Positions 26,514-36,816 of a stretch of 64,000 nt of DNA are shown here, in pieces. Below the pieces are notes generated by a model, which saw only the letters and a list, made by a program, of their open reading frames with translations, did not search any database and had not been told where the DNA came from. The position numbers were made by a program, and so were the translations under genes. Every line of letters starts with the position of its first letter. Position 1 is the first letter of the stretch. Origin of the DNA: Patescibacteria group bacterium UBA6241 (lineage in GTDB: Bacteria; Patescibacteriota; Minisyncoccia; Phycocordibacterales; Phycocordibacteraceae); assembly GCA_002441425.1 (NCBI GenBank), contig DJWB01000001.1, positions 105,653 through 169,652 on the forward strand, read 5' to 3'.

Positions 26514-26584
26514 TGGGAGATCGTCTAATGGTAGGACAGCGGCCTTTGAAGCCGTGAATCTAGGTTCGATCCCTAGTCTCCCAG
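26514..26584 (+). tRNA. tRNA-Gln(TTG), anchor of the cassette array
   Basis: TGGGAGA/TCTCCCA acceptor stem, anticodon arm gcggc-ctTTGaa-gccgt, GGTTCGATCCC. Confidence 0.95.
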
Positions 26585-26683
26585 CAATAAGAAAGCTCAA
26601 ATAACAAAGCCCCACAACCGCATGATTGGGGGCTCCCGTGACGAAATCGGGCTACGTCTGCTTTTCTTACAGGGATTGAGGAC

Positions 26684-27169
26684 TCAGATGATCCCGTTGA
26701 GAATCTTTACGAGCTGGTCGATCGCTTCTCGCTGTTGGGCATCGTGAGTAACTTCGCAGAGGTCCAGCAAACTATCACAGCCTTCATCACATTGATGTGC
26801 TGAAAGGAACGCCTGACCGATGGCCTGCTTGCCACCGCTAATGCAAATCATGAAGTCACGAATCGGTTCGGAAACGTGGCTCATGACGTGAAGGCTGTAT
26901 CCGAAGGAATCCAGCAACTCTTCTGTGTTGATCGTGACCTCCGTGCCCATTTGCCTGCCAGCATTCTTAGCGGCTGCACCGATTGCATTCTTTACTCTGC
27001 CGACCACGTTCTGAATCAGTCTGGCTTGCTTATGTGCCAAACGTTCTTCATGTGACATCGAAAAAACCATTTCGAGATGAATATCAAGCAACATCGTAAC
27101 GTCCTTGGGAATGAGTTCAGCATCCCTACTGACTGCAGAAGTTGAACACTGCAGTTTGTCCGTGTGCAA
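26684..27169 (-). CDS. hypothetical protein (first cassette)
   Basis: 161 aa ORF; TTGACA promoter next to repeat R1; hairpin at 26608-26634. Confidence 0.65.
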   Translation of the reverse strand: MHTDKLQCSTSAVSRDAELIPKDVTMLLDIHLEMVFSMSHEERLAHKQARLIQNVVGRVKNAIGAAAKNAGRQMGTEVTINTEELLDSFGYSLHVMSHVSEPIRDFMICISGGKQAIGQAFLSAHQCDEGCDSLLDLCEVTHDAQQREAIDQLVKILNGII

Positions 27170-27204
27170 TATGCTTTATTTATATAGATATGTCAAGTAT
27201 AAAA

Positions 27205-27231
27205 GTTCCAACATCGTCCCATACCCCCAGC
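27205..27231 (+). repeat. cassette repeat R1
   Basis: gttccaacatcgtcccatacccccagc. Confidence 0.95.
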
Positions 27232-27248
27232 CAATGTATACTCGTGGT

Positions 27249-27578
27249 ATGCCAACAGCTAACATCTATTTCAGTGGTCAGGATAATGTTGAGGCACTTC
27301 AGGCTCTTATTCCTGACCTTAAGACGTATCTCGCACAGGAACTTTCTTGCAGCGACATTTCCCTCACATCAGAAGAGATTAGCATTCGATTTATTACAAA
27401 TACCGGCCCCAATATGATTGGCGATGTAGAGGTTCAGATATCGGCCCATTCATTCCCAGAACGCATTCAAAAGCAGGATCAAGTATGTCTCGACGTAATG
27501 AAATGGCTCCAAGATCGAACTGAGGTAAAGAACATTAAGGTCTGGCTTCAGCTCTCTAAGCTAGGACATAGTTGGTAG
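27249..27578 (+). CDS. hypothetical protein, possible tautomerase/MIF fold
   Basis: Met-Pro start, 109 aa; TATACT just upstream of ATG. Confidence 0.55.
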   Translation: MPTANIYFSGQDNVEALQALIPDLKTYLAQELSCSDISLTSEEISIRFITNTGPNMIGDVEVQISAHSFPERIQKQDQVCLDVMKWLQDRTEVKNIKVWLQLSKLGHSW

Positions 27579-27654
27579 GTTCGTTAATCTTAAGCAGTTT
27601 CGTGCAGATTTGACATAGTAAGTTTTAGTGATAAAAATCATTCGGAGGTGCGAA

Positions 27655-28020
27655 ATGGCAACAATCCTTATTGTCGAAGATACGCCGCTATACCAGCGAG
27701 GGTATCAAAGGGAGCTCGCAGAGCATACCTTGATCATCGCAGGGACTTCGGCTGTCGCCCGGGCTGAATTCGCCCGAATGCAGCATACGATCGATATCAT
27801 CATCCTCGATGGTGAGCTCGCTTCGATGGACCCCGAACGGGACACTGTCGATATGGCGAGCGACTTCCGTGCCGCAGGCTTTACGGGTCCGATGATCGCT
27901 GCGAGCAGCAACCCGTACATCATGAACCAGCTCATGGAGAAGAATCGGTGCTCGCACCGAGCCAGCCCCAAGTCTGATGTCCAAGACCTGGTCAACCAGA
28001 TCCTCGAGAACCGCCCTTAA
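27655..28020 (+). CDS. stand-alone response regulator receiver domain
   Basis: ILIVED...IIILDG...MIAASS...K; GGAGG RBS. Confidence 0.8.
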   Translation: MATILIVEDTPLYQRGYQRELAEHTLIIAGTSAVARAEFARMQHTIDIIILDGELASMDPERDTVDMASDFRAAGFTGPMIAASSNPYIMNQLMEKNRCSHRASPKSDVQDLVNQILENRP

Positions 28021-28056
28021 CCGAGCGGTTTTTCATTTACCGAAAGACTCAGAAGG

Positions 28057-28083
28057 GTTCCAACATCGTCCCAGACTGCCAGC
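28057..28083 (+). repeat. cassette repeat R2
   Basis: gttccaacatcgtcccagactgccagc. Confidence 0.95.
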
Positions 28084-28104
28084 AACTTTGGTACACTTAT
28101 TTGT

Positions 28105-28521
28105 ATGGAGAAAATAGACGAGCAAATTCTACTCACAGAGAGCTTTGATGTGCATCAGGATTGGGAAACCCCAATACCAGGATTTTATATAGTCGCATCG
28201 AGAGATCTCTCCAAAAAGTCTGTCGCAGATTTTACTGACGCTGAATCAGTTGAACTAGCGCTCCTTCTTAAGCGAGTAAGAAAAGCGATGAGTGAAGCTC
28301 TGGGTATAGAGGTTGTGTACTTTTTTGAGAACGAAGATACGGAGCATAGTTTTCATTTCTGGATGTTTCCACGACATGCATGGATGAATCAGTTTGGACC
28401 AAAGGTTCAGTCAATACGGCCAATTATTGAATTCGCTCGACAAACTATGGCAACTCAAGAAACTCTGGCTGAGGTTAAGGAGGCGGCAGAAAAGATGCGA
28501 CTTGTCCTAAAGGAGGGATAA
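28105..28521 (+). CDS. HIT-family hydrolase
   Basis: PIPGFYIV and HSFHFWMFPRH motif. Confidence 0.8.
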   Translation: MEKIDEQILLTESFDVHQDWETPIPGFYIVASRDLSKKSVADFTDAESVELALLLKRVRKAMSEALGIEVVYFFENEDTEHSFHFWMFPRHAWMNQFGPKVQSIRPIIEFARQTMATQETLAEVKEAAEKMRLVLKEG

Positions 28522-28526
28522 AATAG

Positions 28527-28553
28527 GTTCCAACATCGTCCCACACAGCCAGC
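28527..28553 (+). repeat. cassette repeat R3
   Basis: gttccaacatcgtcccacacagccagc. Confidence 0.95.
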
Positions 28554-28706
28554 ATTATTGACAAGCATGTTTATTGTTTGTATTGTACAAACTTAGTTCT
28601 TTGAACACGTTCGCCACAACGCAGGGCACCCTATTTTTAGGATTCTGTGCGCTGTGGCGAATCTGAGATCAGGTTTGTTTGAACGGCGCTGTAAAACCAC
28701 TCAGCA

Positions 28707-29165
28707 ATGGAGTTTCCTATGAGTGAACAACAGTCCTTCCGCGGTCAGGTGGATCGCATGCTGGGACAAATCGTCACCCACGGTCGCCATCTCGAAGGAT
28801 GGACGTCTGAGGATCGGCAGTGGGTGATCGAATATCCGGTTCCGGCCCTCATACTCTTCGCGAAGGCGGTCAGAGAGCGGGATTCAATTCGGGAACCAAA
28901 GCCCGGTGCGGTCGACCTCCTGATCAAGGACGTCTTCACTGTTGAGAAGGCGGGACAGATTGGATCCACGAGTAATGCCAACGCTCGGGTTCTCAATCTG
29001 ACGGAAGAACGTCCGCTCGGTGCCCTTGGGCCGATCAAGACACTCGGCGAGCTAGCCGGGTACCGAGAGAACGTTTTGAGACACGAGCCTAATATGGGAG
29101 ACCAGACCATCTCCTACATCAAGGCCGTCTTGGCAGAGCATGGTCTCAGTTTAAGTTCGCAATAA
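28707..29165 (+). CDS. protein with RNA polymerase alpha-CTD-like domain
   Basis: C-terminal IKTLGELAGYRENVLRHEPNMGDQTISYIKAVLAEHGLSL fits alpha-CTD pattern. Confidence 0.65.
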   Translation: MEFPMSEQQSFRGQVDRMLGQIVTHGRHLEGWTSEDRQWVIEYPVPALILFAKAVRERDSIREPKPGAVDLLIKDVFTVEKAGQIGSTSNANARVLNLTEERPLGALGPIKTLGELAGYRENVLRHEPNMGDQTISYIKAVLAEHGLSLSSQ

Positions 29166-29222
29166 GATCATCATGGGCTGTCTGTTTCCGAAAGGGAATG
29201 GCGGCCCTTTTACTTAATAAAA

Positions 29223-29249
29223 GTTCCAACATCGTCCCACACACCCAGC
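29223..29249 (+). repeat. cassette repeat R4
   Basis: gttccaacatcgtcccacacacccagc. Confidence 0.95.
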
Positions 29250-29284
29250 TATAAAAAAACCGCCCACGGCTCTTGAGGCGGTTG

Positions 29285-29626
29285 TTACGGCTTGGTCAGT
29301 TCTTCAAGAACGATATCGAGGACCGTTGTTCTCAGCCATTTCTCGAAAGTGGCTGGGTTAAAAAGGTAAGTCGGTTCTATATTGCCGGGCTCGATCTTCC
29401 TTGAAATGGTTGTTCGTGTCCAGATACCCATCATGCCGTTGGCAGGGAAGTAAACCAGAGATAAACAGAACCAAGGATGTCCTTCCCTTGTTCCCTCTAT
29501 GTCATACCGGAGGTAGTACTTTTCCTTTTCGTTACCGGACTCTATCTCAACATCGCAACATAGAGGCTCTGCGAAGTGAGACAAAATAGTCAGAAGCGAG
29601 TCAGGACCTTCAAGATCTGTCGTCAT
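29285..29626 (-). CDS. hypothetical protein
   Basis: AGGAG RBS before ATG 29626; terminator-like hairpin 29254-29283. Confidence 0.65.
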   Translation of the reverse strand: MTTDLEGPDSLLTILSHFAEPLCCDVEIESGNEKEKYYLRYDIEGTREGHPWFCLSLVYFPANGMMGIWTRTTISRKIEPGNIEPTYLFNPATFEKWLRTTVLDIVLEELTKP

Positions 29627-29677
29627 GTGCGACTCCTGTAGCGAATCTAGACAGAACCTACCACATGCTGAAGAAAG

Positions 29678-29704
29678 GTTCCAACATCGTCCCACACAGC
29701 CAGC
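29678..29704 (+). repeat. cassette repeat R5
   Basis: gttccaacatcgtcccacacagccagc (identical to R3, R6). Confidence 0.95.
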
Positions 29705-29724
29705 AGAGGTTGTATAATAGTTGC

Positions 29725-30120
29725 ATGAAGAATTCTTTTGGAATGAGGCCTCCTGCTAGGAACGAGCGCCCAGTTTCTGAAGCAAGAGAAATAACCCCAG
29801 CCCAGGTTCCTGATTTCGTTAAATCAGAGTTTAAGAGACTGAGAGATCAAATACTCCAAGAATCCGATGGCGCAGAACTGAAGGATAAGAAAGGATTGGT
29901 GGAGAATCTAGAAGATGGGGTCGAGCGTTATATTTTAGTTAATGAATTGCGAGACTCAGATACCCGGGCACATACTCAAGCCAGCCCATTTATGAATTTG
30001 ACTCCAAGCGGAACGTATAAGGAAATACACATGATTGTGGACGTAAAGAACGGAACTATAACTAAGTCCGAAATGAATAGAAACCCCGATCCCTCATGGT
30101 TCTCTATGAGGTATAGCTAA
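29725..30120 (+). CDS. hypothetical protein
   Basis: TATAAT just upstream of ATG; stop 4 nt before R6. Confidence 0.7.
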   Translation: MKNSFGMRPPARNERPVSEAREITPAQVPDFVKSEFKRLRDQILQESDGAELKDKKGLVENLEDGVERYILVNELRDSDTRAHTQASPFMNLTPSGTYKEIHMIVDVKNGTITKSEMNRNPDPSWFSMRYS

Positions 30121-30124
30121 GAAG

Positions 30125-30151
30125 GTTCCAACATCGTCCCACACAGCCAGC
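30125..30151 (+). repeat. cassette repeat R6
   Basis: gttccaacatcgtcccacacagccagc. Confidence 0.95.
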
Positions 30152-30172
30152 AACGAATGCTACACTTTTGTC

Positions 30173-30631
30173 ATGCGAACTGTTGAACGAGAGATCGCCT
30201 CTGCGCTCATCTTCTCAAAAGACGGGAAGCTCCTGCAGGTTAAGAATGCTGAACCTGTGCACGGAGTGTATGGAGAATGTTGGGTTATACCTGGCGGCGG
30301 TCTCGAAGAGGGAGAGACAGTGGAAGAGGCCGTGGTACGCGAAGTGATGGAGGAAGTCGGTCTAGATATCTCTTCTTCTCCGAAGGAATTAGTATGGACA
30401 GGCAACGGGGAATCGACCCGGATCCTCAAAGATACGGGCGAGGAGGTGCTCGTAAAGATGCGCTTCAACAACTTTAAAGTTCAGCTTGAAGAGAACGCAG
30501 AAGATATCCAGCTTACGTTTGGTGACGAACACCATGTGCATATATGGACCGATGTATCTGAGCTGAAGAACATGAGCCTCTCTCGACCATCTATAGAATG
30601 CCTGACTGAGCTTGGTTATTTACCGAGCTGA
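30173..30631 (+). CDS. NUDIX hydrolase
   Basis: Nudix box GGGLEEGETVEEAVVREVMEEVG. Confidence 0.92.
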   Translation: MRTVEREIASALIFSKDGKLLQVKNAEPVHGVYGECWVIPGGGLEEGETVEEAVVREVMEEVGLDISSSPKELVWTGNGESTRILKDTGEEVLVKMRFNNFKVQLEENAEDIQLTFGDEHHVHIWTDVSELKNMSLSRPSIECLTELGYLPS

Positions 30632-30636
30632 TTCTG

Positions 30637-30663
30637 GTTCCAACATCGTCCCAGACTGCCAGC
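30637..30663 (+). repeat. cassette repeat R7
   Basis: gttccaacatcgtcccagactgccagc (identical to R2). Confidence 0.95.
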
Positions 30664-30685
30664 CATCTATGTTAGGATTGGTTGA

Positions 30686-31018
30686 ATGAATAAGAATGGA
30701 TCGACTCGAGCTTGGTTCGTCATGTTTAGTCTGACAGCTATTGCTCTTGCAATCCCTCTCACAAATCTCAGCCTCTTACTTTCTGGAATATATAACGAGC
30801 CCGGGTATTCAGATGGAACTGTTTCGAGCCCAACCGAGATAGCATTCCTAACTGTTGCCATACTCGTGCCAATTGGAGTGACGGTTAGTGTGATTATGAC
30901 TCAGTGGAAGCGCTCTGTGGCATGGGGTGTGCTTGGTGTAATGATCTCATTTGCTCCTGTGCTTCTAGCAGCAATTATTGCGGCCGCTGCTATCATCTCT
31001 CGGGCTCTGTTCTCTTGA
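30686..31018 (+). CDS. three-TM membrane hypothetical protein
   Basis: Three hydrophobic segments; fills R7-R8 interval. Confidence 0.7.
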   Translation: MNKNGSTRAWFVMFSLTAIALAIPLTNLSLLLSGIYNEPGYSDGTVSSPTEIAFLTVAILVPIGVTVSVIMTQWKRSVAWGVLGVMISFAPVLLAAIIAAAAIISRALFS

Positions 31019-31026
31019 GTGTAAGG

Positions 31027-31053
31027 GTTTCAACATCGTCCCACACCCCCAGC
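31027..31053 (+). repeat. cassette repeat R8
   Basis: gtttcaacatcgtcccacacccccagc. Confidence 0.93.
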
Positions 31054-31119
31054 CTGTAAGAGAAAACCCGCCAACAACTAAGAGACGGGAATCTCATTGT
31101 TGCAGCGGGTCGCGTTTGT

Positions 31120-31503
31120 TTAGTAGATATGAGGTGCGACGAAATAGCGGATGGACACGCGGCCTTGCTCGCCCGGTTCGTCGATCGTGATGATGACGTT
31201 GTCTTTCCAGACAGAGCGCAGCACCTCAACTGCTGCCGCAACCTGTTTGTAGTTGCGGAGGCCAGGGAGGTTGTAGCCGTAGCGGTCTGAGTACTTTCCG
31301 TACATCAAAAGCACCTCGATGACCTGCTGCTCCCTGACGAATCGGCGCAGGCTGGTGTTCTCTGGAGGAATGGCCTCCAGAAGGGCAGTTGCGAGTCTCG
31401 CTTCAGCCTCAGCCTGATCTTGTCGTTGTCGCTCGAACTCAGAGAGAGTGCGGATTCGATCGCTCAGCGCTGACGCTAAACGAAAAGGATCGAGATTGTT
31501 CAC
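31120..31503 (-). CDS. hypothetical protein
   Basis: GGGAG RBS, GTG start, TTGACT promoter next to R9; hairpin near 31065-31111. Confidence 0.65.
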   Translation of the reverse strand: MNNLDPFRLASALSDRIRTLSEFERQRQDQAEAEARLATALLEAIPPENTSLRRFVREQQVIEVLLMYGKYSDRYGYNLPGLRNYKQVAAAVEVLRSVWKDNVIITIDEPGEQGRVSIRYFVAPHIY

Positions 31504-31575
31504 GGTTCTTCTCCCAATAACCTAGTGAGGAATATACTATTTAAATTCTATTTAGTCAACAGATCCTGCAGAAAG

Positions 31576-31602
31576 GTTCCAACATCGTCCCAGACAGCAA
31601 AC
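31576..31602 (+). repeat. cassette repeat R9
   Basis: gttccaacatcgtcccagacagcaaac. Confidence 0.93.
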
Positions 31603-31627
31603 ACTAAAGAATGCCATAATCAGTAAT

Positions 31628-32077
31628 ATGTATTACATATACAAAGAAATGCAGCCAGGCGAACAAGAAATAGTTCGTGGGATGATACATAGTTTTTACG
31701 CAACCGATCCAGATATGGGCGCAATAACAGACGAGAAGATTAATCGTACTTTTAGTGAGTTTTCAAAGCATCCAGAGAAAGGTTTTGTATATGTAATAAA
31801 GGACGACCAACAGATTGTTGGCTACAGCATACTTGTGAACTTTTGGAGCAATGAGGCGGGAGGAAATATCATTGATATTGACGAGTTGTTCGTAGAAGAG
31901 AGCGAGCGAGGAAAGGGAGTGGGAACAAATTTCATTAAGCACATTATAGAAAGTCGTCTGAACGAATGTGTCGCTGTTGAACTAGGGGTCATAGCAGGGA
32001 ATGACAGAGCACAAAGACTTTATGAGCGAATAGGGTTTAGGCTCTCCACTAACCGTCGCCTAATATATGATTTCTAA
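31628..32077 (+). CDS. GNAT acetyltransferase
   Basis: IDELFVEESERGKGVG, N..AQRLYERIGF. Confidence 0.9.
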   Translation: MYYIYKEMQPGEQEIVRGMIHSFYATDPDMGAITDEKINRTFSEFSKHPEKGFVYVIKDDQQIVGYSILVNFWSNEAGGNIIDIDELFVEESERGKGVGTNFIKHIIESRLNECVAVELGVIAGNDRAQRLYERIGFRLSTNRRLIYDF

Positions 32078-32087
32078 CCTGACTAGG

Positions 32088-32114
32088 TTTCTAACAACGT
32101 CTCAGACTGCCAGC
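32088..32114 (+). repeat. cassette repeat R10 (diverged)
   Basis: tttctaacaacgtctcagactgccagc. Confidence 0.85.
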
Positions 32115-32135
32115 TAATTTTGATACACTTCTTGC

Positions 32136-32810
32136 ATGAATTCTGTACTTATAACTGGAGCAGGCAGAGGAATAGGCAAAGAACTGTCTCTGAGATTTCT
32201 CGGTGCTGGGTATCGGGTGTGGGGAACTACAACATCGGGAGATGCTGATTTCTCGCACGAGAATCTTCAAATGCTACAGCTCGATCTCCGTTCACCAGAG
32301 AGCATAAAGACATGCGTGCAGGAATTAATTAGTTCCGGCGAACGATTCGATATTGCAGTTAACAATGCAGGGGCGCTCCTTGATGAGAACGAAAAGACCC
32401 TCAAGACAGATCTCCTACGCCAAACACTAGAGATAAACCTTATTGGAACTTCGGATTTTACAGAGCAAGTTTTACCTCTTGTGAATAAAGGAGGGCACAT
32501 TGTTATGGTGTCGTCTTCTGCTGGATCAGTTGGAAGGACTGGCAATGTAGTAAGCCGATATCCATCACAGTATCCCGCGTACAAGATCTCAAAGGCTGCA
32601 CTTAACATGTATATGCGTACACTTGCCGTTCGATTGAAGGATAAGGACATTACGGTGTCTTCTGTCCATCCTGGATGGGCCAGGACTGATATGGGAGGTG
32701 AAGAGGCATCAATCTCAGCGGAGGAAGCTGCCGACACTGTTTACAAGGTAGCCATATCTAGACCAGAGACTGGTCACTTCTGGTATTCAGAAGGAGAATT
32801 GCCTTGGTAG
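32136..32810 (+). CDS. short-chain dehydrogenase/reductase
   Basis: TGAGRGIG, NNAG, YKISK, VHPGW. Confidence 0.93.
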   Translation: MNSVLITGAGRGIGKELSLRFLGAGYRVWGTTTSGDADFSHENLQMLQLDLRSPESIKTCVQELISSGERFDIAVNNAGALLDENEKTLKTDLLRQTLEINLIGTSDFTEQVLPLVNKGGHIVMVSSSAGSVGRTGNVVSRYPSQYPAYKISKAALNMYMRTLAVRLKDKDITVSSVHPGWARTDMGGEEASISAEEAADTVYKVAISRPETGHFWYSEGELPW

Positions 32811-32813
32811 AAA

Positions 32814-32840
32814 GTTCCAACGTCGTTCTAGGCCGTCAGC
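32814..32840 (+). repeat. cassette repeat R11 (diverged)
   Basis: gttccaacgtcgttctaggccgtcagc. Confidence 0.8.
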
Positions 32841-32867
32841 TCATAAAATTCATGCTAAATTTCTCTC

Positions 32868-33413
32868 ATGATTAAAATCACTTACTTTGTCCACGGAACA
32901 ACTGTAGACAATCAGAATGAGATCTCCTCCGGCTGGTCTGACGCCCCTCTATCCGAGTTAGGTATTCAGCAGTCAAAAGATCTTAAGGAGCAAACTAAGG
33001 ATAAGCATTTTGATGTAGTGTTTTGTTCTGACCTGCAACGCGCTCGCATGTCTGCAGAACTTGCTTGGGGCAGTATGTACGAGATTATTCCCGATGCTCG
33101 TCTTCGTGAATGTAACTATGGCGAGCTGAATGGAAGAGCATCTGAAATTGTAGAGCCGCTGCAAGAGAAGGAAATGCATTTCAAGGCATTTCCGGGTGGG
33201 GAGAGTTATGAGGATGTGAAGAATCGTGTTGCTGACTTCCTTGATTTCCTCAAAGAAAATTATGATGGCAAGCACGTAGCGCTAGTGGGTCATAAGGCAC
33301 CCCAGCTTGCACTTGATGTCCTTATCAAAGGAGTAACCTGGGACGAGGCTCTCGCGAATGATTGGCGTAAGACTAAGTCTTGGAAACCAGGCTGGGAATA
33401 CCAACTAATCTAG
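32868..33413 (+). CDS. histidine phosphatase family protein
   Basis: FVHGTT, SDLQRA, RLRECNYG, GGES, LVGH. Confidence 0.88.
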   Translation: MIKITYFVHGTTVDNQNEISSGWSDAPLSELGIQQSKDLKEQTKDKHFDVVFCSDLQRARMSAELAWGSMYEIIPDARLRECNYGELNGRASEIVEPLQEKEMHFKAFPGGESYEDVKNRVADFLDFLKENYDGKHVALVGHKAPQLALDVLIKGVTWDEALANDWRKTKSWKPGWEYQLI

Positions 33414-33421
33414 TTAAACAG

Positions 33422-33448
33422 GTTCCAACATCGTCCCACACCCCCAGC
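33422..33448 (+). repeat. cassette repeat R12
   Basis: gttccaacatcgtcccacacccccagc. Confidence 0.95.
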
Positions 33449-33472
33449 CAATAAAATTGTTATAGTTTATGT

Positions 33473-34042
33473 ATGACTTATATTCTTCATGGAGGATTTG
33501 AACGGGAAGATAACGAGTTAAATAGAAGCTTCTATCAAGAAGTTCTGAAAGGCGTTTCTGATAATGGAACACTTCTTCTTGTTCACTTTGCTTCAACTCA
33601 CTCTCCAGAAGAGGTGAAAGAAACACACGAACTCCAGGAGAAAAGGATGCAAAGCCTTACGAACAAACATATAAATGTTGAGTTCGCGACCGAAGAAGAT
33701 TTCTTAAATCAAGTGGAGCACGCGGATGCAATTCACATGCGAGGAGGACATACACCGAAATTGCTTTCAGTCCTGAAAAACTATCCGGAACTTGCAGCTA
33801 TGTTCTCAAACAAAACTATTTCTGGATCTTCAGCCGGAGCTTATGCATTGGCAAAATATGGACCCGGGCATTCAGAAGAGGGAATACGTGAAGGTTTGGG
33901 TCTTGTTCCTATTAGATTGGCCTGTCATTACGAAAGTCTAGAGTTACCTCCTGATTCTGAGTCACTTACTGAACTTAAAGCTATGGCGACAGAACTGGAA
34001 CTTGTAACATTGAGAGATTTTGAGTGGCGCGTATTCAATTAA
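33473..34042 (+). CDS. peptidase E (S51) / class I glutamine amidotransferase-like
   Basis: HMRGGHT, GSSAGA, GLGLV, CHY. Confidence 0.8.
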   Translation: MTYILHGGFEREDNELNRSFYQEVLKGVSDNGTLLLVHFASTHSPEEVKETHELQEKRMQSLTNKHINVEFATEEDFLNQVEHADAIHMRGGHTPKLLSVLKNYPELAAMFSNKTISGSSAGAYALAKYGPGHSEEGIREGLGLVPIRLACHYESLELPPDSESLTELKAMATELELVTLRDFEWRVFN

Positions 34043-34043
34043 G

Positions 34044-34070
34044 GTTCCAACGTCATCTCACACCGCCAAC
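34044..34070 (+). repeat. cassette repeat R13 (diverged)
   Basis: gttccaacgtcatctcacaccgccaac. Confidence 0.85.
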
Positions 34071-34093
34071 AACTTCATGCTACGGTACTGAGT

Positions 34094-34546
34094 ATGAGAA
34101 GAGTTTCAGTAAGAGGTATCGCCCTACACGAAGGGAAACTTCTGTGCGTTAAATTGAAGCCGTATAACAAGATGGCTGCATCAGGAGGTGATTGGCGATG
34201 TCTTCCGGGAGGAACAGTTGAAGAAGGAGAATCATTGAATGTAGCTCTTATGCGGGAGATGTACGAGGAGACTGGCGTAAGTCCGGAAATAGGGAAACTA
34301 TTGTATGTTCATCAGTTTCTATTTGAGGAAAGTGACCAGCTTGAATTTTTCTTTCATATTGCTAATCCGGGTGACTATCTAGAAATAGACCTAGAGAACA
34401 CAACGCACGGATTACATGAGATCGAGAGTATTGATTTCGTAGACCCAAAAGAAACATTTATTCTCCCTATATTTCTTTCTCAGGAGACTTTAAAGAACCA
34501 AATCGAATCAAATGCACCGGTTAAAATATTTTCCTTTGCAAAGTAG
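34094..34546 (+). CDS. NUDIX hydrolase
   Basis: LPGGTVEEGESLNVALMREMYEETG. Confidence 0.92.
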   Translation: MRRVSVRGIALHEGKLLCVKLKPYNKMAASGGDWRCLPGGTVEEGESLNVALMREMYEETGVSPEIGKLLYVHQFLFEESDQLEFFFHIANPGDYLEIDLENTTHGLHEIESIDFVDPKETFILPIFLSQETLKNQIESNAPVKIFSFAK

Positions 34547-34568
34547 GTCAGAGGATGGTTAATAAAAA

Positions 34569-34595
34569 GTTCCAACATCGTCCCAGACTGGCAAC
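34569..34595 (+). repeat. cassette repeat R14
   Basis: gttccaacatcgtcccagactggcaac. Confidence 0.92.
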
Positions 34596-34641
34596 AAATA
34601 AAAACTGCCTAAAACCTTTCGGTCTTCGGCAGTTTGAGAGT

Positions 34642-34812: not shown

Positions 34813-34859
34813 GAGATAGGTCTCCCTTCTGGACAGAACCTAACACGGACTGCATATAC

Positions 34860-34886
34860 GTTCGAGCGTCGCCCAATACTACTAGA
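34860..34886 (+). repeat. probable degenerate repeat R15
   Basis: gttcgagcgtcgcccaatactactaga; intergenic between divergent ORFs. Confidence 0.45.
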
Positions 34887-34958
34887 CATGAAAATGGACA
34901 AGGAGCTATTTTATTGTATGGTGCTAGCAGAGAGACAATTAGCCAGGAGGGCTAGCAG

Positions 34959-35708
34959 ATGTACCAACCAACACAGCCGCTACTGTTCTCCTGGATTCAT
35001 GAAGGTGAATACCCGGGAGGAGACTACACCTTTTTACACAGTAATGGCTCATATGTACGAATTGAGGACTGGAAGAAACGGTATAAGGACACAAAGGAGA
35101 AACCGGCTATCCCATTCAGATTCACCGTGCGTGACCGCACATTCATTGGCCACATAACCGACGAATGTCTGGTATCGCGCATAACTGAGTATCTGCAGGA
35201 TTACTACGGTAAGCGTTACACCAACTGCTCCGCGTTCGCTCACTTCCTGACTACCGGCACGTTTATAGAGTGCGACGAAGAACAGAGCCTCGTTGTGCTT
35301 ACGCAGGACATGGCTCAGTACCGAGGCGAGACTATTCGTGTCGGGGATATGCTTTGCGTAATCTATGCGAATGATCGCCTTTGGCGGTCTCGCAAGGTGT
35401 CGCACCGCAAAAGTTACTTGCGTGCCAAGAAGAAACGGAGAGGTACGCACGAGTTCACTCACGGGTTACCTCCAAGAAAGAGGATTCTCTCCGCGAAGGG
35501 TATCCGGGAACTCTGCGCGAGTGTTCTCGCTGATGATTATCACTTTCTTGTCTGCGTCGCTAAAGACGCCGCCGGGCCGGTATGGCTTGCTCAAGGTGGA
35601 CGCTACGCACCGGGTGACGAACCTAGTCCGCTGGTGTTCACGGTGGGGAACAATGATGGATACGATAATGTAGTACCTCTCCTTGCGCTCCTTAAAAGAC
35701 GTAGATGA
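34959..35708 (+). CDS. hypothetical protein
   Basis: 249 aa, AGGAGG RBS; TNCSAFAHF and DYHF may be a Cys/His pair; downstream hairpin. Confidence 0.65.
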   Translation: MYQPTQPLLFSWIHEGEYPGGDYTFLHSNGSYVRIEDWKKRYKDTKEKPAIPFRFTVRDRTFIGHITDECLVSRITEYLQDYYGKRYTNCSAFAHFLTTGTFIECDEEQSLVVLTQDMAQYRGETIRVGDMLCVIYANDRLWRSRKVSHRKSYLRAKKKRRGTHEFTHGLPPRKRILSAKGIRELCASVLADDYHFLVCVAKDAAGPVWLAQGGRYAPGDEPSPLVFTVGNNDGYDNVVPLLALLKRRR

Positions 35709-35763
35709 TCCCGGCTCTACACTTCAACGCCCGCGGCATTTATGTCGTGGGTGTTTCATTTTA

Positions 35764-35790
35764 AGTTCAGCATCGCTCCAGGCGGTCAGT
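35764..35790 (+). repeat. degenerate repeat R16
   Basis: agttcagcatcgctccaggcggtcagt; closest to R11; followed by TATACT and ATG like other cassettes. Confidence 0.6.
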
Positions 35791-35811
35791 TTATGGGTAT
35801 ATACTCTGCAT

Positions 35812-36816
35812 ATGTCAGCAATAGAACTTGTAAGAGTCTCTACTCCGGAAGATTGGGAGCAATATCACAGCATTAGAGAAAAAGTTTTATTTGAGAACAA
35901 GAACCGGTCTTATGATCGGACTCATGCTGATGAACACCGGCCTAACAATGTGCCATTTCTGCTAAAGAAGGACGGACTAGGTATAGCGACCACAAGACTA
36001 GATCTTCGTCCTGACACCCAAGCGGCTATTATCCGTCTAGTTGCTGTAGTTGAGTCTGAGCAACGAAAAGGGTATGGACGTGCTCTACAAGCAAAAATAG
36101 ATGAATATGCACGTTCTCAAGGCGTAAAAAGGCTTCTCGTTAATGCTGCCCCCGATGCTATTGGTTTCTATAAAAAGATCGGTTTTGTGCCGGAATCGTG
36201 GGACCCAGAAGAACTCACAGGAATATCTAAGGATTCCGTTCAGTTGTCTAAAGCATTGTTACCCATGACTGAAAAGGAAATACTTGAGCTAATCAAGAAC
36301 GACGAGTGGATGATGTCTATTCTTAGGGTAGCTCGTAGCCTTAATCTGCCGGATTGGATAATTGGTGCAGGATTCGTAAGAAACAAAGTTTGGGATCATC
36401 TACACGGGTATACGGAACGCACCCCTTTAGCTGATATAGATTTGATTTACTTTGATCCAGCTCATATAGATGAGTCACAAGAAAAAGAGTATGACCAAAG
36501 GCTACATCAATTAGTTGATGTTCAATGGTCTACAAAGAATCAAGCACGCATGCATGTAATAAATGGAAACGCACCATTTACCTCTGCAGAAGACGGATTG
36601 GCGCATTGGATTGAAACTCCAACATGTACTGGAGTAACGTTGCTAGACAACGACACTCTGCAATTAATTGCACCCTACGGGATAGAGGACCTTGTGCACT
36701 TGCGAGTGAGACCAGTTAACCCAGAGAAAGATATTACGCTTTATAGAGAGCGGGTAACAAAAAAGAAATGGAAGGAAACTTGGCCAAGACTAGAAATCTT
36801 AGAGACCAGAGCATAA
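35812..36816 (+). CDS. GNAT acetyltransferase fused to DUF925-type nucleotidyltransferase
   Basis: N-half RLVAV..QRKGYG..AIGFYKKIGF; C-half LPDWIIGAGFVRNKVWD, DIDLIYFD, KNQARMH, APYG. Confidence 0.85.
   Translation: MSAIELVRVSTPEDWEQYHSIREKVLFENKNRSYDRTHADEHRPNNVPFLLKKDGLGIATTRLDLRPDTQAAIIRLVAVVESEQRKGYGRALQAKIDEYARSQGVKRLLVNAAPDAIGFYKKIGFVPESWDPEELTGISKDSVQLSKALLPMTEKEILELIKNDEWMMSILRVARSLNLPDWIIGAGFVRNKVWDHLHGYTERTPLADIDLIYFDPAHIDESQEKEYDQRLHQLVDVQWSTKNQARMHVINGNAPFTSAEDGLAHWIETPTCTGVTLLDNDTLQLIAPYGIEDLVHLRVRPVNPEKDITLYRERVTKKKWKETWPRLEILETRA

Follow-up and report, generated by a model that had tools for sequence, protein, structure and literature searches.

An array of gene cassettes behind tRNA-Gln in a Patescibacteria genome is bordered by a repeat matching the element-side end of large serine recombinase elements

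Introduction

In integrons, the tyrosine recombinase IntI is encoded beside attI, and the attC sites fold as single-strand hairpins. A different arrangement is found in the Dehalococcoides ssrA islands and their serine recombinase DsiB, for which the sections of McMurdie et al. (2011, PMC3146451) used here describe a large serine recombinase (LSR) of ~540 aa that lies on the reverse strand and whose 3′ end overlaps attL. According to the same sections, the LSR gene is complete only in the circular form or when it lies behind another island, and 15 of 31 islands have no integration module (PMC3146451). For the LI/A118 integrase, the model as excerpted from Rutherford et al. (2013, PMC3783163) sets the distal motif of attP 5 bp farther from the crossover than that of attB and has attL × attR recombination blocked without a directionality factor. 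For the tycheposon-seeded islands of Prochlorococcus, the excerpted preprint states that tyrosine recombinases are used, with partial tRNAs left behind, in 910 of 937 cases (bioRxiv 10.1101/2020.12.28.424599).

Here we analyzed a window of 64,000 nt from the Patescibacteria group bacterium UBA6241 (GCA_002441425.1, contig DJWB01000001.1, 105,653 to 169,652), to which all positions below refer. A first-pass annotation of its sequence had described a repeat that reads as a conserved cryptic peptide on the minus strand and had proposed that each copy represents the 3′ tail of a protein-coding gene under selection in its donor, most plausibly a recombinase with the att site inside its own 3′ end.

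Results

Fourteen direct, same-strand copies of a 28-nt repeat (R1–R14) occupy 27204–34595, downstream of tRNA-Gln. The 18-nt core gave 12 matches with at most three mismatches, against 0.04 expected by chance, and no further copy was found anywhere in the 686-kb assembly, where the best outside score was 16 compared with 31–49 for the copies. A CRISPR array was ruled out, as the repeats are spaced 390–852 nt apart with whole genes in between, whereas CRISPR spacers span 20–70 nt. The copies mark the right-hand limits of gene cassettes, encoded on either strand, that form a stack behind tRNA-Gln. The view of each repeat as a gene tail is supported as to origin by the donor elements below, and the copies themselves are cassette borders rather than 14 scattered gene ends. 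Most units between repeats hold one gene, each with its own −10 box.

The head of the array is tRNA-Gln(TTG) (26514..26585, plus strand), whose last 23 nt (26563–26585, plus strand) constitute the inferred attB half-site (B arm). Cassette 1 (26586..27231, minus strand, 646 bp; 136-aa ORF at 26684–27094 with no Pfam match) is closed by R1 (27204..27231), a putative attP half-site (P arm) that, like all the repeats, lies on the plus strand and reads LGVWDDVGT on the minus strand. Cassette 2 (27232..28083, plus strand, 852 bp) has two genes, a 109-aa ORF without a match (27249–27578) and a receiver-domain-like gene (27655–28020, plus strand; PF00072 below the cut-off), and ends in R2 (28056..28083, LAVWDDVGT). 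Cassette 3 (28084..28553, plus strand, 470 bp) encodes a 138-aa protein without a confident family (28105–28521) and ends in R3 (28526..28553, LAVWDDVGT), and cassette 4 (28554..29249, plus strand, 696 bp) contains a hairpin at 28610–28661 and an unmatched 152-aa ORF (28707–29165) before R4 (29222..29249, LGVWDDVGT). Unmatched ORFs also fill cassette 5 (29250..29704, minus strand, 455 bp; 113 aa, 29285–29626), closed by R5 (29677..29704, LAVWDDVGT), and cassette 6 (29705..30151, plus strand, 447 bp; 131 aa, 29725–30120), closed by R6 (30124..30151, LAVWDDVGT). A NUDIX hydrolase (30173–30631, PF00293) occupies cassette 7 (30152..30663, plus strand, 512 bp), which ends in R7 (30636..30663, LAVWDDVGT). 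Cassette 8 (30664..31053, plus strand, 390 bp) carries a hydrophobic 110-aa ORF (30686–31018) and R8 (31026..31053, LGVWDDVET), and cassette 9 (31054..31602, minus strand, 549 bp) a 127-aa ORF (31120–31503) and R9 (31575..31602, FAVWDDVGT), neither ORF having a match.

The remaining cassettes, all on the plus strand, have assignable products: a GNAT acetyltransferase (31628–32077) in cassette 10 (31603..32114, 512 bp), a short-chain dehydrogenase (32136–32810, PF00106) in cassette 11 (32115..32840, 726 bp), a histidine phosphatase (32868–33413) in cassette 12 (32841..33448, 608 bp), a peptidase S51 (33473–34042) in cassette 13 (33449..34070, 622 bp), and a second NUDIX hydrolase (34094–34546, PF00293) in cassette 14 (34071..34595, 525 bp). 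They are closed, respectively, by the eroded R10 (32087..32114) and R11 (32813..32840), by R12 (33421..33448, LGVWDDVGT), by R13 (34043..34070), which begins directly after the peptidase stop codon, and by R14 (34568..34595, LPVWDDVGT). Beyond R14, a probable older cassette (34859..35790, plus strand) has a 249-aa ORF (34959–35708) between two tentative eroded sites (~34859–34886 and ~35764–35790), which were recognized by eye and by comparison with the congener G027, where this unit is a cassette with 84% DNA identity; the profile search for sites missed both.

All 11 translations and four stop positions quoted in the first-pass annotation were correct, and the variation it had placed at third codon positions was borne out by 28, 9, and 7 departures from the consensus at third, second, and first positions, respectively. 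Across the 14 copies, its frame L[AG]VWDDVGT had 29 synonymous and 15 non-synonymous changes, giving a pN/pS of 0.18 compared with 0.59–3.75 in the other five frames. In 161 copies elsewhere, namely those not chosen by the search pattern, this frame was again the lowest of the six (0.43). Open frames upstream of the repeats extend for just 5–61 codons; the annotation had noted that the frames generally have no upstream gene. The annotation left out the stop codons that replace the Trp codon in R10, R11, and R13 (3 of 14 copies), those immediately ahead of the Leu codon in R4 and R12, and the invariance of fourfold-degenerate sites: the third positions of the Gly and second Val codons are unchanged in 14/14 copies here and in 157/161 and 155/161 copies elsewhere. 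Because stops occur in 3 of the 14 copies and these synonymous sites are invariant, the sequences point to selection in the array acting on the DNA site, not on the peptide, which is probably produced in the donor element alone. What stands of the "conserved cryptic peptide" is therefore an inherited coding pattern that is not maintained in the array.

The low pN/pS values would also be consistent with a small peptide or RNA working at these loci, as would the fact that just 9 of 358 cores contain a stop. We consider this highly improbable and largely refuted already, given the stops in the cores here and directly upstream of 37 of the 358, the short upstream frames, the invariant synonymous sites, and the absence of a start codon common to the copies, of an Rfam match for the repeat, and of a fold. 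No hairpin was found at the sites on either strand: the cores fold at 0 to −1.3 kcal/mol, and cores with 30-nt flanks never gave a z-score below −1.6 on either strand. The missing hairpin, on both strands, also speaks against a true integron or another tyrosine-recombinase cassette array, to which the one-gene spacing, the typical cargo (GNAT, NUDIX, and SDR), and the polarity would be suited. Moreover, the only PF00589 gene of the genome lies on another contig (C2) and scores best as Xer-type, and the site forms the terminus of serine recombinase genes. The donor elements described next already contradict an integron, which we regard as scarcely credible.

These donor elements were found in relatives; they measure 4–7 kb and comprise an LSR of 480–510 aa and a rolling-circle Rep adjoining tRNA-Gln. 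The reading frame of the LSR continues into the tRNA; the part of the gene that it lacks lies at the far border of the element, which is the repeat. It was present at the far end in 6 of 9 Gln-headed elements, two of them exact; the far arm was unseen in the other three, whose contigs end within 1–4.7 kb. Within the donor clade as a whole, 10 of 17 elements had a far arm, and in elements at Ser, Ile, and Gly tRNAs the last bases of the arm match the respective tRNA. Examples include an intact 480-aa LSR at tRNA-Gln CTG with the far arm LAVWDDVGT at 4.3 kb (G529), a 502-aa LSR at tRNA-Gln TTG with LGVWDDVGT at 4.5 kb (G528), and a free B arm followed by a 511-aa LSR and then a dozen more repeats (G521:C1). 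The LSRs of G529 and G678, whose elements end in the repeat, carry resolvase, recombinase, and zinc-ribbon domains (PF00239, PF07508, and PF13408). A donor's first downstream arm could belong to a later cassette.

Natural LSRs also end in the motif, for which the annotation had proposed a search of protein C-termini, and tyrosine integrases were not involved: P0272 ends in LLAVWDEVGT, P0340 in LLAVWDEVRT, and P0376 in MRGVWFEVGT, the motif standing where integrated copies switch to tRNA-derived letters. In one LSR cluster (90% identity), tails are swapped at the same codon, and P0272 and P0340 could be such swapped tails rather than circles. As anticipated for selection in the donor, the displaced tail of a related element differed between two copies by 10 synonymous changes and 1 non-synonymous change in 25 codons. 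We observed no circle or excision junction. The repeat matches the element-side end of LSR elements at tRNA-Gln and is likely their attP half-site, and we hold it reasonably probable that the array consists of recombinase-less cassettes insertable by the LSR of a passing element at the tRNA-Gln 3′ end.

The repeat corresponds to the tRNA-Gln end plus 5 nt, with 14–18 of 23 matches when a 5-nt gap is allowed and 6–11 of 23 without it. Its recognition bases are fixed, and positions 19, 22, and 23 are free to vary. No conserved second arm was detected right of the cut, where there is only ~70% AA; over 277 copies, the information content is ~0.7 bit at the two A's and then at most 0.25 bit. In donor elements, the LSR coding sequence occupies the place of the second arm.

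Cassettes have a median length of 561 bp (n = 318; 178 plus, 122 minus, and 18 without an ORF). Arrays carry a B-type head upstream in 67 of 87 cases, compared with 0/86 and 2/69 in controls. Many arrays elsewhere begin at a free 23-nt tRNA-end mimic at the stop codon of a core gene, the same free heads recurring behind the same core genes. Cassette 10 recurs border to border in G027 (79% DNA identity, different order), cassette 12 has a twin in L101 (607 bp, 89% aa and 77% DNA identity including both sites, different neighbors), and cassette 13 has a homolog in L204 (625 bp, 49% aa identity) that is the first cassette there.

These comparisons bear on whether each unit, although of the same origin, instead arrived as a complete LSR element, integrated, and later decayed where it lay until its last gene and P arm were left, with dead sites and an array that merely records arrivals, much as proposed, in the accounts excerpted here, for integrase-less Dehalococcoides islands (PMC3146451) and Prochlorococcus islands (bioRxiv 10.1101/2020.12.28.424599). 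Such decay is illustrated by L223, an element within an array that has undergone internal deletion and whose LSR 3′ remnant (76% identity over 50 aa, E 1e-15) shares the reading frame of an exact repeat, and it would fit the 43% identity of the last cargo gene of G529 to two free cassettes, the missing second arm, and the failure to find a donor-clade LSR in this genome (best match 32%). Independent decay should, however, produce ragged left borders and LSR remnants, whereas cassette pairs above 60% identity in unrelated arrays have lengths within 9 bp in 10 of 12 cases, and L223 is the one remnant among the array loci. Two cassettes are in swapped order in G027 relative to here, copies near the head stay near-perfect across distant lineages, and free B arms have drifted toward the P-arm sequence at a position no longer held by tRNA pairing. 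In-place decay therefore seems to us unlikely, if still worth weighing.

A further alternative is that the sites are LSR-derived but that cassettes are now exchanged through the host's own homologous recombination when DNA is taken up, anchored by the 28-bp repeats and flanking core genes, with no site-specific enzyme. The arrays indeed persist in genomes without a donor LSR, the clade occurring in only 5 of 60 congeners and 2 of 10 repeat-bearing congeners; repeat variants resemble each other more closely inside one array (43%) than from array to array (22%), and the recurrent free heads fit as well. A stretch of 28 bp is short for RecA-type exchange, though, and this route would neither fix the recognition bases while positions 19, 22, and 23 vary nor explain why each array has a single B-type head and a polar age gradient, the copies becoming more eroded with distance from the head in 16 of 23 arrays (no gradient or a reversed one in 7). 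We judge it decidedly improbable.

Discussion

In the favored reading, that of insertable recombinase-less cassettes, the repeat would complete the LSR gene in the excised circle and be translated there, which would explain its codon pattern. Integration would cut the last bases of the tRNA (around G73–C74), exchanging the LSR tail for tRNA antisense, with the original tail remaining at the far border. If the LSR-Rep module were then lost, a minimal cassette would be left, the last cargo gene plus P arm with its own −10 box, in which selection would preserve the DNA site rather than the peptide. Least certain are the steps in which the LSR would still join B arm and P arm regardless of the sequence right of the cut, and in which cassettes would be cut out, pass from cell to cell, and join the array at its head (tRNA-Gln or a free 23-nt copy), pushing older ones outward. 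Points against this reading are the lack of a conserved second arm in cassettes, whereas characterized LSRs bind four half-sites in the excerpted account (PMC3783163), the failure to find the donor clade here and its rarity in congeners, the 7 of 23 arrays without an erosion gradient or with a reversed one, and the 20 of 87 without a B head.

More tentatively, and a little short of probable in our estimation, Patescibacteria may run an integron from serine-recombinase parts. The one-armed attP half-site would serve as attC. The role of attI would fall to the end of tRNA-Gln, or to a portable 23-nt copy of that end fused to the stop codon of a core gene; a visiting LSR-Rep element would capture, excise, and reorder one-gene cassettes with their own promoters at several places in each genome, and the C-terminal helix of the LSR, present only in the circle, would switch activity. 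If cassettes move, this would be a second, independently built integron-like gene-capture system, helping to explain small accessory-gene turnover in episymbiont genomes of 0.6–1 Mb, for which group few mobile elements have been described. An LSR working with one specific arm per site would run contrary to the four-half-site model and would matter for enzyme engineering. The donor enzymes, now named with their attP and attB, are a possible tRNA-preserving integration tool for Patescibacteria, and even on a conservative reading the 28-nt site and 23-nt head are a simple marker for variable islands across the group.

The principle is already published for the Dehalococcoides ssrA islands, as far as the excerpted account goes (PMC3146451); we found no literature description of such a system in Patescibacteria. 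Both systems have the LSR 3′ end over the att site and tandem units behind a tRNA-like gene, some without a module, and the Dehalococcoides islands, too, share an element-side motif next to the repeat (PMC3146451). They differ in target, the sections used here describing a cut in the tmRNA T-loop with a 20-bp host direct repeat, compared with the last bases of tRNA-Gln, and in the repeated piece, which is there the ssrA direct repeat (PMC3146451) and here the element's own P arm rather than a host-gene copy. The six-gene dsi module (DsiA, RecF, ParB, Mom, and others; PMC3146451), none of whose genes was found within the array, contrasts with the LSR and rolling-circle Rep that precede the cargo in our donors. 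Islands there hold several genes and extend over as much as 100 kb (PMC3146451), whereas the units here are mostly single genes of ~560 bp. Arrays of the present system also start at free tRNA-end copies, unlike those in the excerpted Dehalococcoides account.

With LI/A118 as presented in the excerpted model, our system shares a half-site of ~25–27 bp, the 5-bp attP/attB offset, and, in the donors, the resolvase, recombinase, and zinc-ribbon domains, whereas LI/A118 sites have two recognized arms (PMC3783163) and cassette junctions here one conserved arm. As in the tycheposon islands, transient tRNA-targeting elements would leave accreted material, with newcomers pushing older material outward; precise one-gene cassettes are not described in the excerpted account (bioRxiv 10.1101/2020.12.28.424599). 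Unlike integrons, the array has serine-recombinase sites, no hairpin, no resident integrase, a −10 box for each unit, and cassettes in both orientations. It is integron-like in layout and apparent logic: a single head site is followed by one-gene cassettes, every one of them ending in a site, with the newest at the head and with similar cargo.

Codon pattern of the repeat

Fourteen 28-nt copies of the repeat (R1–R14) lie on the plus strand within 27204–34595 of the window, where the 18-nt core was matched 12 times with up to three mismatches, against 0.04 matches expected. No further copy was detected in the rest of the 686-kb, 98%-complete assembly, and an Rfam search of the window returned tRNAs only. 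The first-pass annotation had read the repeat on the minus strand as a conserved cryptic peptide, L[AG]VWDDVGT; all 14 copies proved real and the quoted translations correct. When differences from the consensus were counted in all six frames, this frame displayed the lowest pN/pS (0.18; 29 synonymous versus 15 non-synonymous differences in the 14 copies), the remaining five ranging from 0.59 to 3.75. In other genomes, 161 copies outside the search pattern gave 0.43 in the peptide frame versus 0.78–0.99, a comparison in which selection bias remains because these copies were chosen by weight matrix.

Conversely, the Trp codon is replaced by a stop in R10, R11, and R13, a stop stands immediately ahead of the Leu in R4 and R12, and the open frames upstream of the copies span only 5–61 codons. 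At the fourfold-degenerate third positions of the Gly and the second Val, all 14 window copies agree, as do 157 and 155, respectively, of the 161 copies elsewhere; the Ala/Gly position, where changes are non-synonymous, varies freely. The stops, the short upstream frames, and the fixed synonymous sites count against a working peptide in the array. Thus, the codon pattern of the "conserved cryptic peptide" is real, but the peptide is without function in place.

The two hydrophobic codons following the motif might be reverse-complemented stop codons, an explanation that accounts for only part of them: of 89 copies that adjoin a stop codon, 79 have an A at −5, yet so do 218 of the 269 copies without such a stop, and the second residue past the motif was hydrophobic in 8/8 donor arms. 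Separately, a left flank recurs before repeats that adjoin minus-strand genes (R5, 29655–29676; R9, 31560–31574; and many other loci). Its minus strand reads FLQHMVG/FMQSMLG/LMQLC, but the flank appears to be a promoter element common to these loci and not a peptide.

Origin of the repeat in recombinase gene ends

Among 240 homologues of large serine recombinases (LSRs), the tails past a shared junction were of two types: tRNA-derived tails, and tails reading L-x-x-x-D-[DE]-V-R-T followed by hydrophobic residues; a loose pattern for the latter type matched 36 of the 240, one of them spuriously. In genome G001, an LSR is located at tRNA-Gln(CTG), and the far border of its element, 13 kb off, encodes LRGLDEVRTVLLAGK, which is the tail of P0137, a homologue 80% identical to the G001 LSR. 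Ten cassette-type repeats follow behind this border. Members of the 90% cluster of P0137 exchange tails at one and the same codon, and locus L223 retains a 191-bp remnant of a P0137-type LSR end that shares its reading frame with an exact repeat. Comparison of the two copies of the displaced tail over 25 codons gave 10 synonymous changes and 1 non-synonymous change, indicating that selection in the donors acts on the tail as protein. When the final 48 residues of another protein, P0211, served as query, only the self-match was recovered.

The LSR of genome G028 retrieved LSRs whose C-termini are of the motif type: P0272, ending in LLAVWDEVGTCVSI, P0340, ending in LLAVWDEVRT, and P0376, ending in MRGVWFEVGT. 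The earlier proposal that each repeat is the 3′ tail of a recombinase gene carrying the att site in its own end is therefore supported by the donor elements, by the L223 remnant, and by the tail exchanges, and we regard this origin as close to certain.

Cognate donor elements

Intact elements were reached via P0272. In G529, tRNA-Gln(CTG) is followed by a 480-aa LSR, a Rep gene, and two cargo genes, with the far arm (LAVWDDVGT) at 4.3 kb; the last cargo gene shares 43% identity with each of two free cassettes. G528 carries a 502-aa LSR at tRNA-Gln(TTG) and a far arm (LGVWDDVGT) at 4.5 kb that begins directly after the stop of the last cargo gene. On contig C1 of G521, a free head precedes a 511-aa LSR, with the first arm at 4.9 kb and then a dozen more repeats. 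A rolling-circle Rep (PF23343 or PF05144) adjoins the LSR in all three scanned elements of the donor clade.

The donor LSRs formed one clade (99/98), which as such is unsurprising because the tree rows were selected by similarity; the two LSRs of this genome fell outside it. These two, in elements at tRNA-Glu (G000:C4:267785-269476) and tRNA-Asn (G000:C4:294797-296395), have tRNA-derived C-termini, the reverse complements of tRNA-Glu and tRNA-Asn. They were rejected as cognate enzymes on account of these antisense tails and their position outside the donor clade.

A far arm was found 3.9–7.8 kb out in 10 of 17 donor-clade elements. With Gln-type heads it was present in 6 of 9, always of the repeat type, and the other three contigs end within 4.7 kb. 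Arms at Ser, Ile, and Gly tRNAs differ in sequence (RRVWDEVGT, RAVWFEVGT, CRCWDEVGT, and CGLFNDVRT), indicating that the first arm residues follow the target tRNA. The window copies matched the last 23 nt of the tRNA at 14–18 positions when 5 nt were skipped and at 6–11 otherwise; the accessible text of PMC3783163 reports an attP/attB offset of 5 nt, as seen here. We infer a crossover near G73–C74, since the sequence to the right of the shared end differs among junctions.

The 3′ end of tRNA-Gln(CTG), the second target of the system, is where contig C3 of this genome (G000:C3:1-72, L311:1-72) stops, exactly at the putative crossover. An element or a mixed population may lie past the contig end; contigs of one sample aligned on it contained nothing past the tRNA.

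Array heads

After de-duplication, 101 arrays remained, 14 of which had too little upstream DNA, and the other 87 were scored with B arms (putative attB half-sites) called by weight matrix. In 19 of them the head was tRNA-Gln, either the gene itself or its duplicated 3′ portion, and in 48 it was a free copy of the terminal 23 nt of tRNA-Gln (one of these, L006, was mis-called); 20 had neither type of head. As controls, 0/86 were found on the opposite strand and 2/69 behind the last repeat.

In 20 of the 48 free heads, the stop codon of the upstream gene ends −1 to +2 from the first base of the arm, and the same upstream gene ends recur; judging by eye, we take these to be ychF-, alaS-, dnaN-, and M23-like. 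Such a join could be seeded by the TAG that the tRNA T-stem has in common with the stop codon. At seven loci (L006, L031, L247, L251, L257, L266, and L270), a 43–101-nt unit directly follows tRNA-Gln and ends in a second tRNA-Gln 3′ end, a possible source of free heads. A free tRNA-Gln end heading an array was also observed 7–45 nt past tRNA-Pro (L010 and L047) or tRNA-Met (L013).

Cassette structure and order

In the window, the array is headed by tRNA-Gln(TTG) (26514–26585), with R1 beginning 618 nt behind it. From the tRNA to R14 there are 14 units of 390–852 bp, 13 with one main gene and one with two; Pfam named two NUDIX, a GNAT, an SDR, a histidine phosphatase, and a peptidase S51 among them. 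Across the fetched arrays, 318 units (median 561 bp) comprised 178 on the plus strand, 122 on the minus strand, and 18 without an ORF of 45 aa. For the 90 plus units with an ATG 14–45 nt from the junction, a TAnnnT box ended 4–9 nt before the ATG in 84 (shuffles: mean 21, maximum 34). This suggests that cassette transcripts may be leaderless and start from their own −10 box.

Twelve homologous cassette pairs exceeded 60% identity, and 10 of them matched in length within 9 bp, these near-equal pairs coming from arrays without any other common pair; the 608-bp phosphatase cassette of the window has a 607-bp twin in L101. The congener G027, 77% identical to the window in both flanks at the same locus, holds the GNAT unit and the 249-aa unit of the window in reversed order, and its other content is different. 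In 16 of 23 arrays, sites scored lower the farther they lay from the head (Wilcoxon p=0.012, overstated because arrays are related), and the window array displayed the same trend (rho −0.64).

Several further features were observed in and around the array. In the two-gene cassette, the first gene's stop codon overlaps GGTTCG (27578–27600), the letters with which a B arm begins, and the remainder does not match. The ORF at 28105–28521 contains the stretch H-F-H-F-W-M-F-P-R-H, which is reminiscent of HIT-family proteins; Pfam and NCBIfam named no family for it. Cassette 4 has an unusually long leader, and a hairpin with 24-bp arms (28610–28661) separates its gene from R3. Just past the array, the ORF at 35683–36816 encodes a GNAT domain fused with an NTP_transf_6 nucleotidyltransferase, and accessory genes continue to about 40900.

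Distribution and present activity

Scanning one genome per species for the exact pattern yielded 117 stretches, and 72 of the 80 listed were from bacteria named as Patescibacteria. The repeat was present in 10/36 congeners and 2/24 other genera of the order, and the reversed pattern gave no match in the same genomes. Together with the genome size, this distribution points to a host within Patescibacteria. A viral collection contained 34 matches of the 17-nt core (L121–L154), all internal codons of one protein family, which encodes VWDDVGTF and, from one fully printed frame judged by eye, looks like a DNA methyltransferase. The family is unrelated to the array, and we judged the likeness a coincidence.

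No conserved arm was detected to the right of the cut. The donor clade was not detected in this genome (best match 32%); it occurred in 5 of 60 congeners, and just 2 of the 10 repeat-bearing congeners had it. Family searches recovered no LSR in 3/5 and 2/5 array-bearing genomes, which are incomplete. Contigs from four DNA runs of one sample provided no usable cassette junction; two repeat–repeat joints, each having a side shorter than 30 letters, and loose ends at repeats could stem from other organisms present in that sample and were left out of account. The origin of the repeat is near certain; given the lack of a right arm, the rare or missing donor clade, and the lack of junctions, ongoing LSR-driven cassette traffic is only likely.

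Comparison with known systems

Within mostly non-subscription papers on Patescibacteria/CPR or tandem LSR arrays, no description of such a system was found. The array works like an integron but tested negative for IntI and attC. It has accretion in common with tycheposon islands, which, in the part of that report consulted (10.1101/2020.12.28.424599), mostly use tyrosine recombinases. In the accessible text of McMurdie et al. 2011 (PMC3146451), the 3′ end of a serine recombinase gene overlaps attL, islands stand in tandem behind ssrA, 15 of them without the module, and the recombinase gene is suggested to be whole only in the circle. As far as that text goes, the principle is the same, whereas the target, repeated piece, module, unit size, and free heads all differ here.
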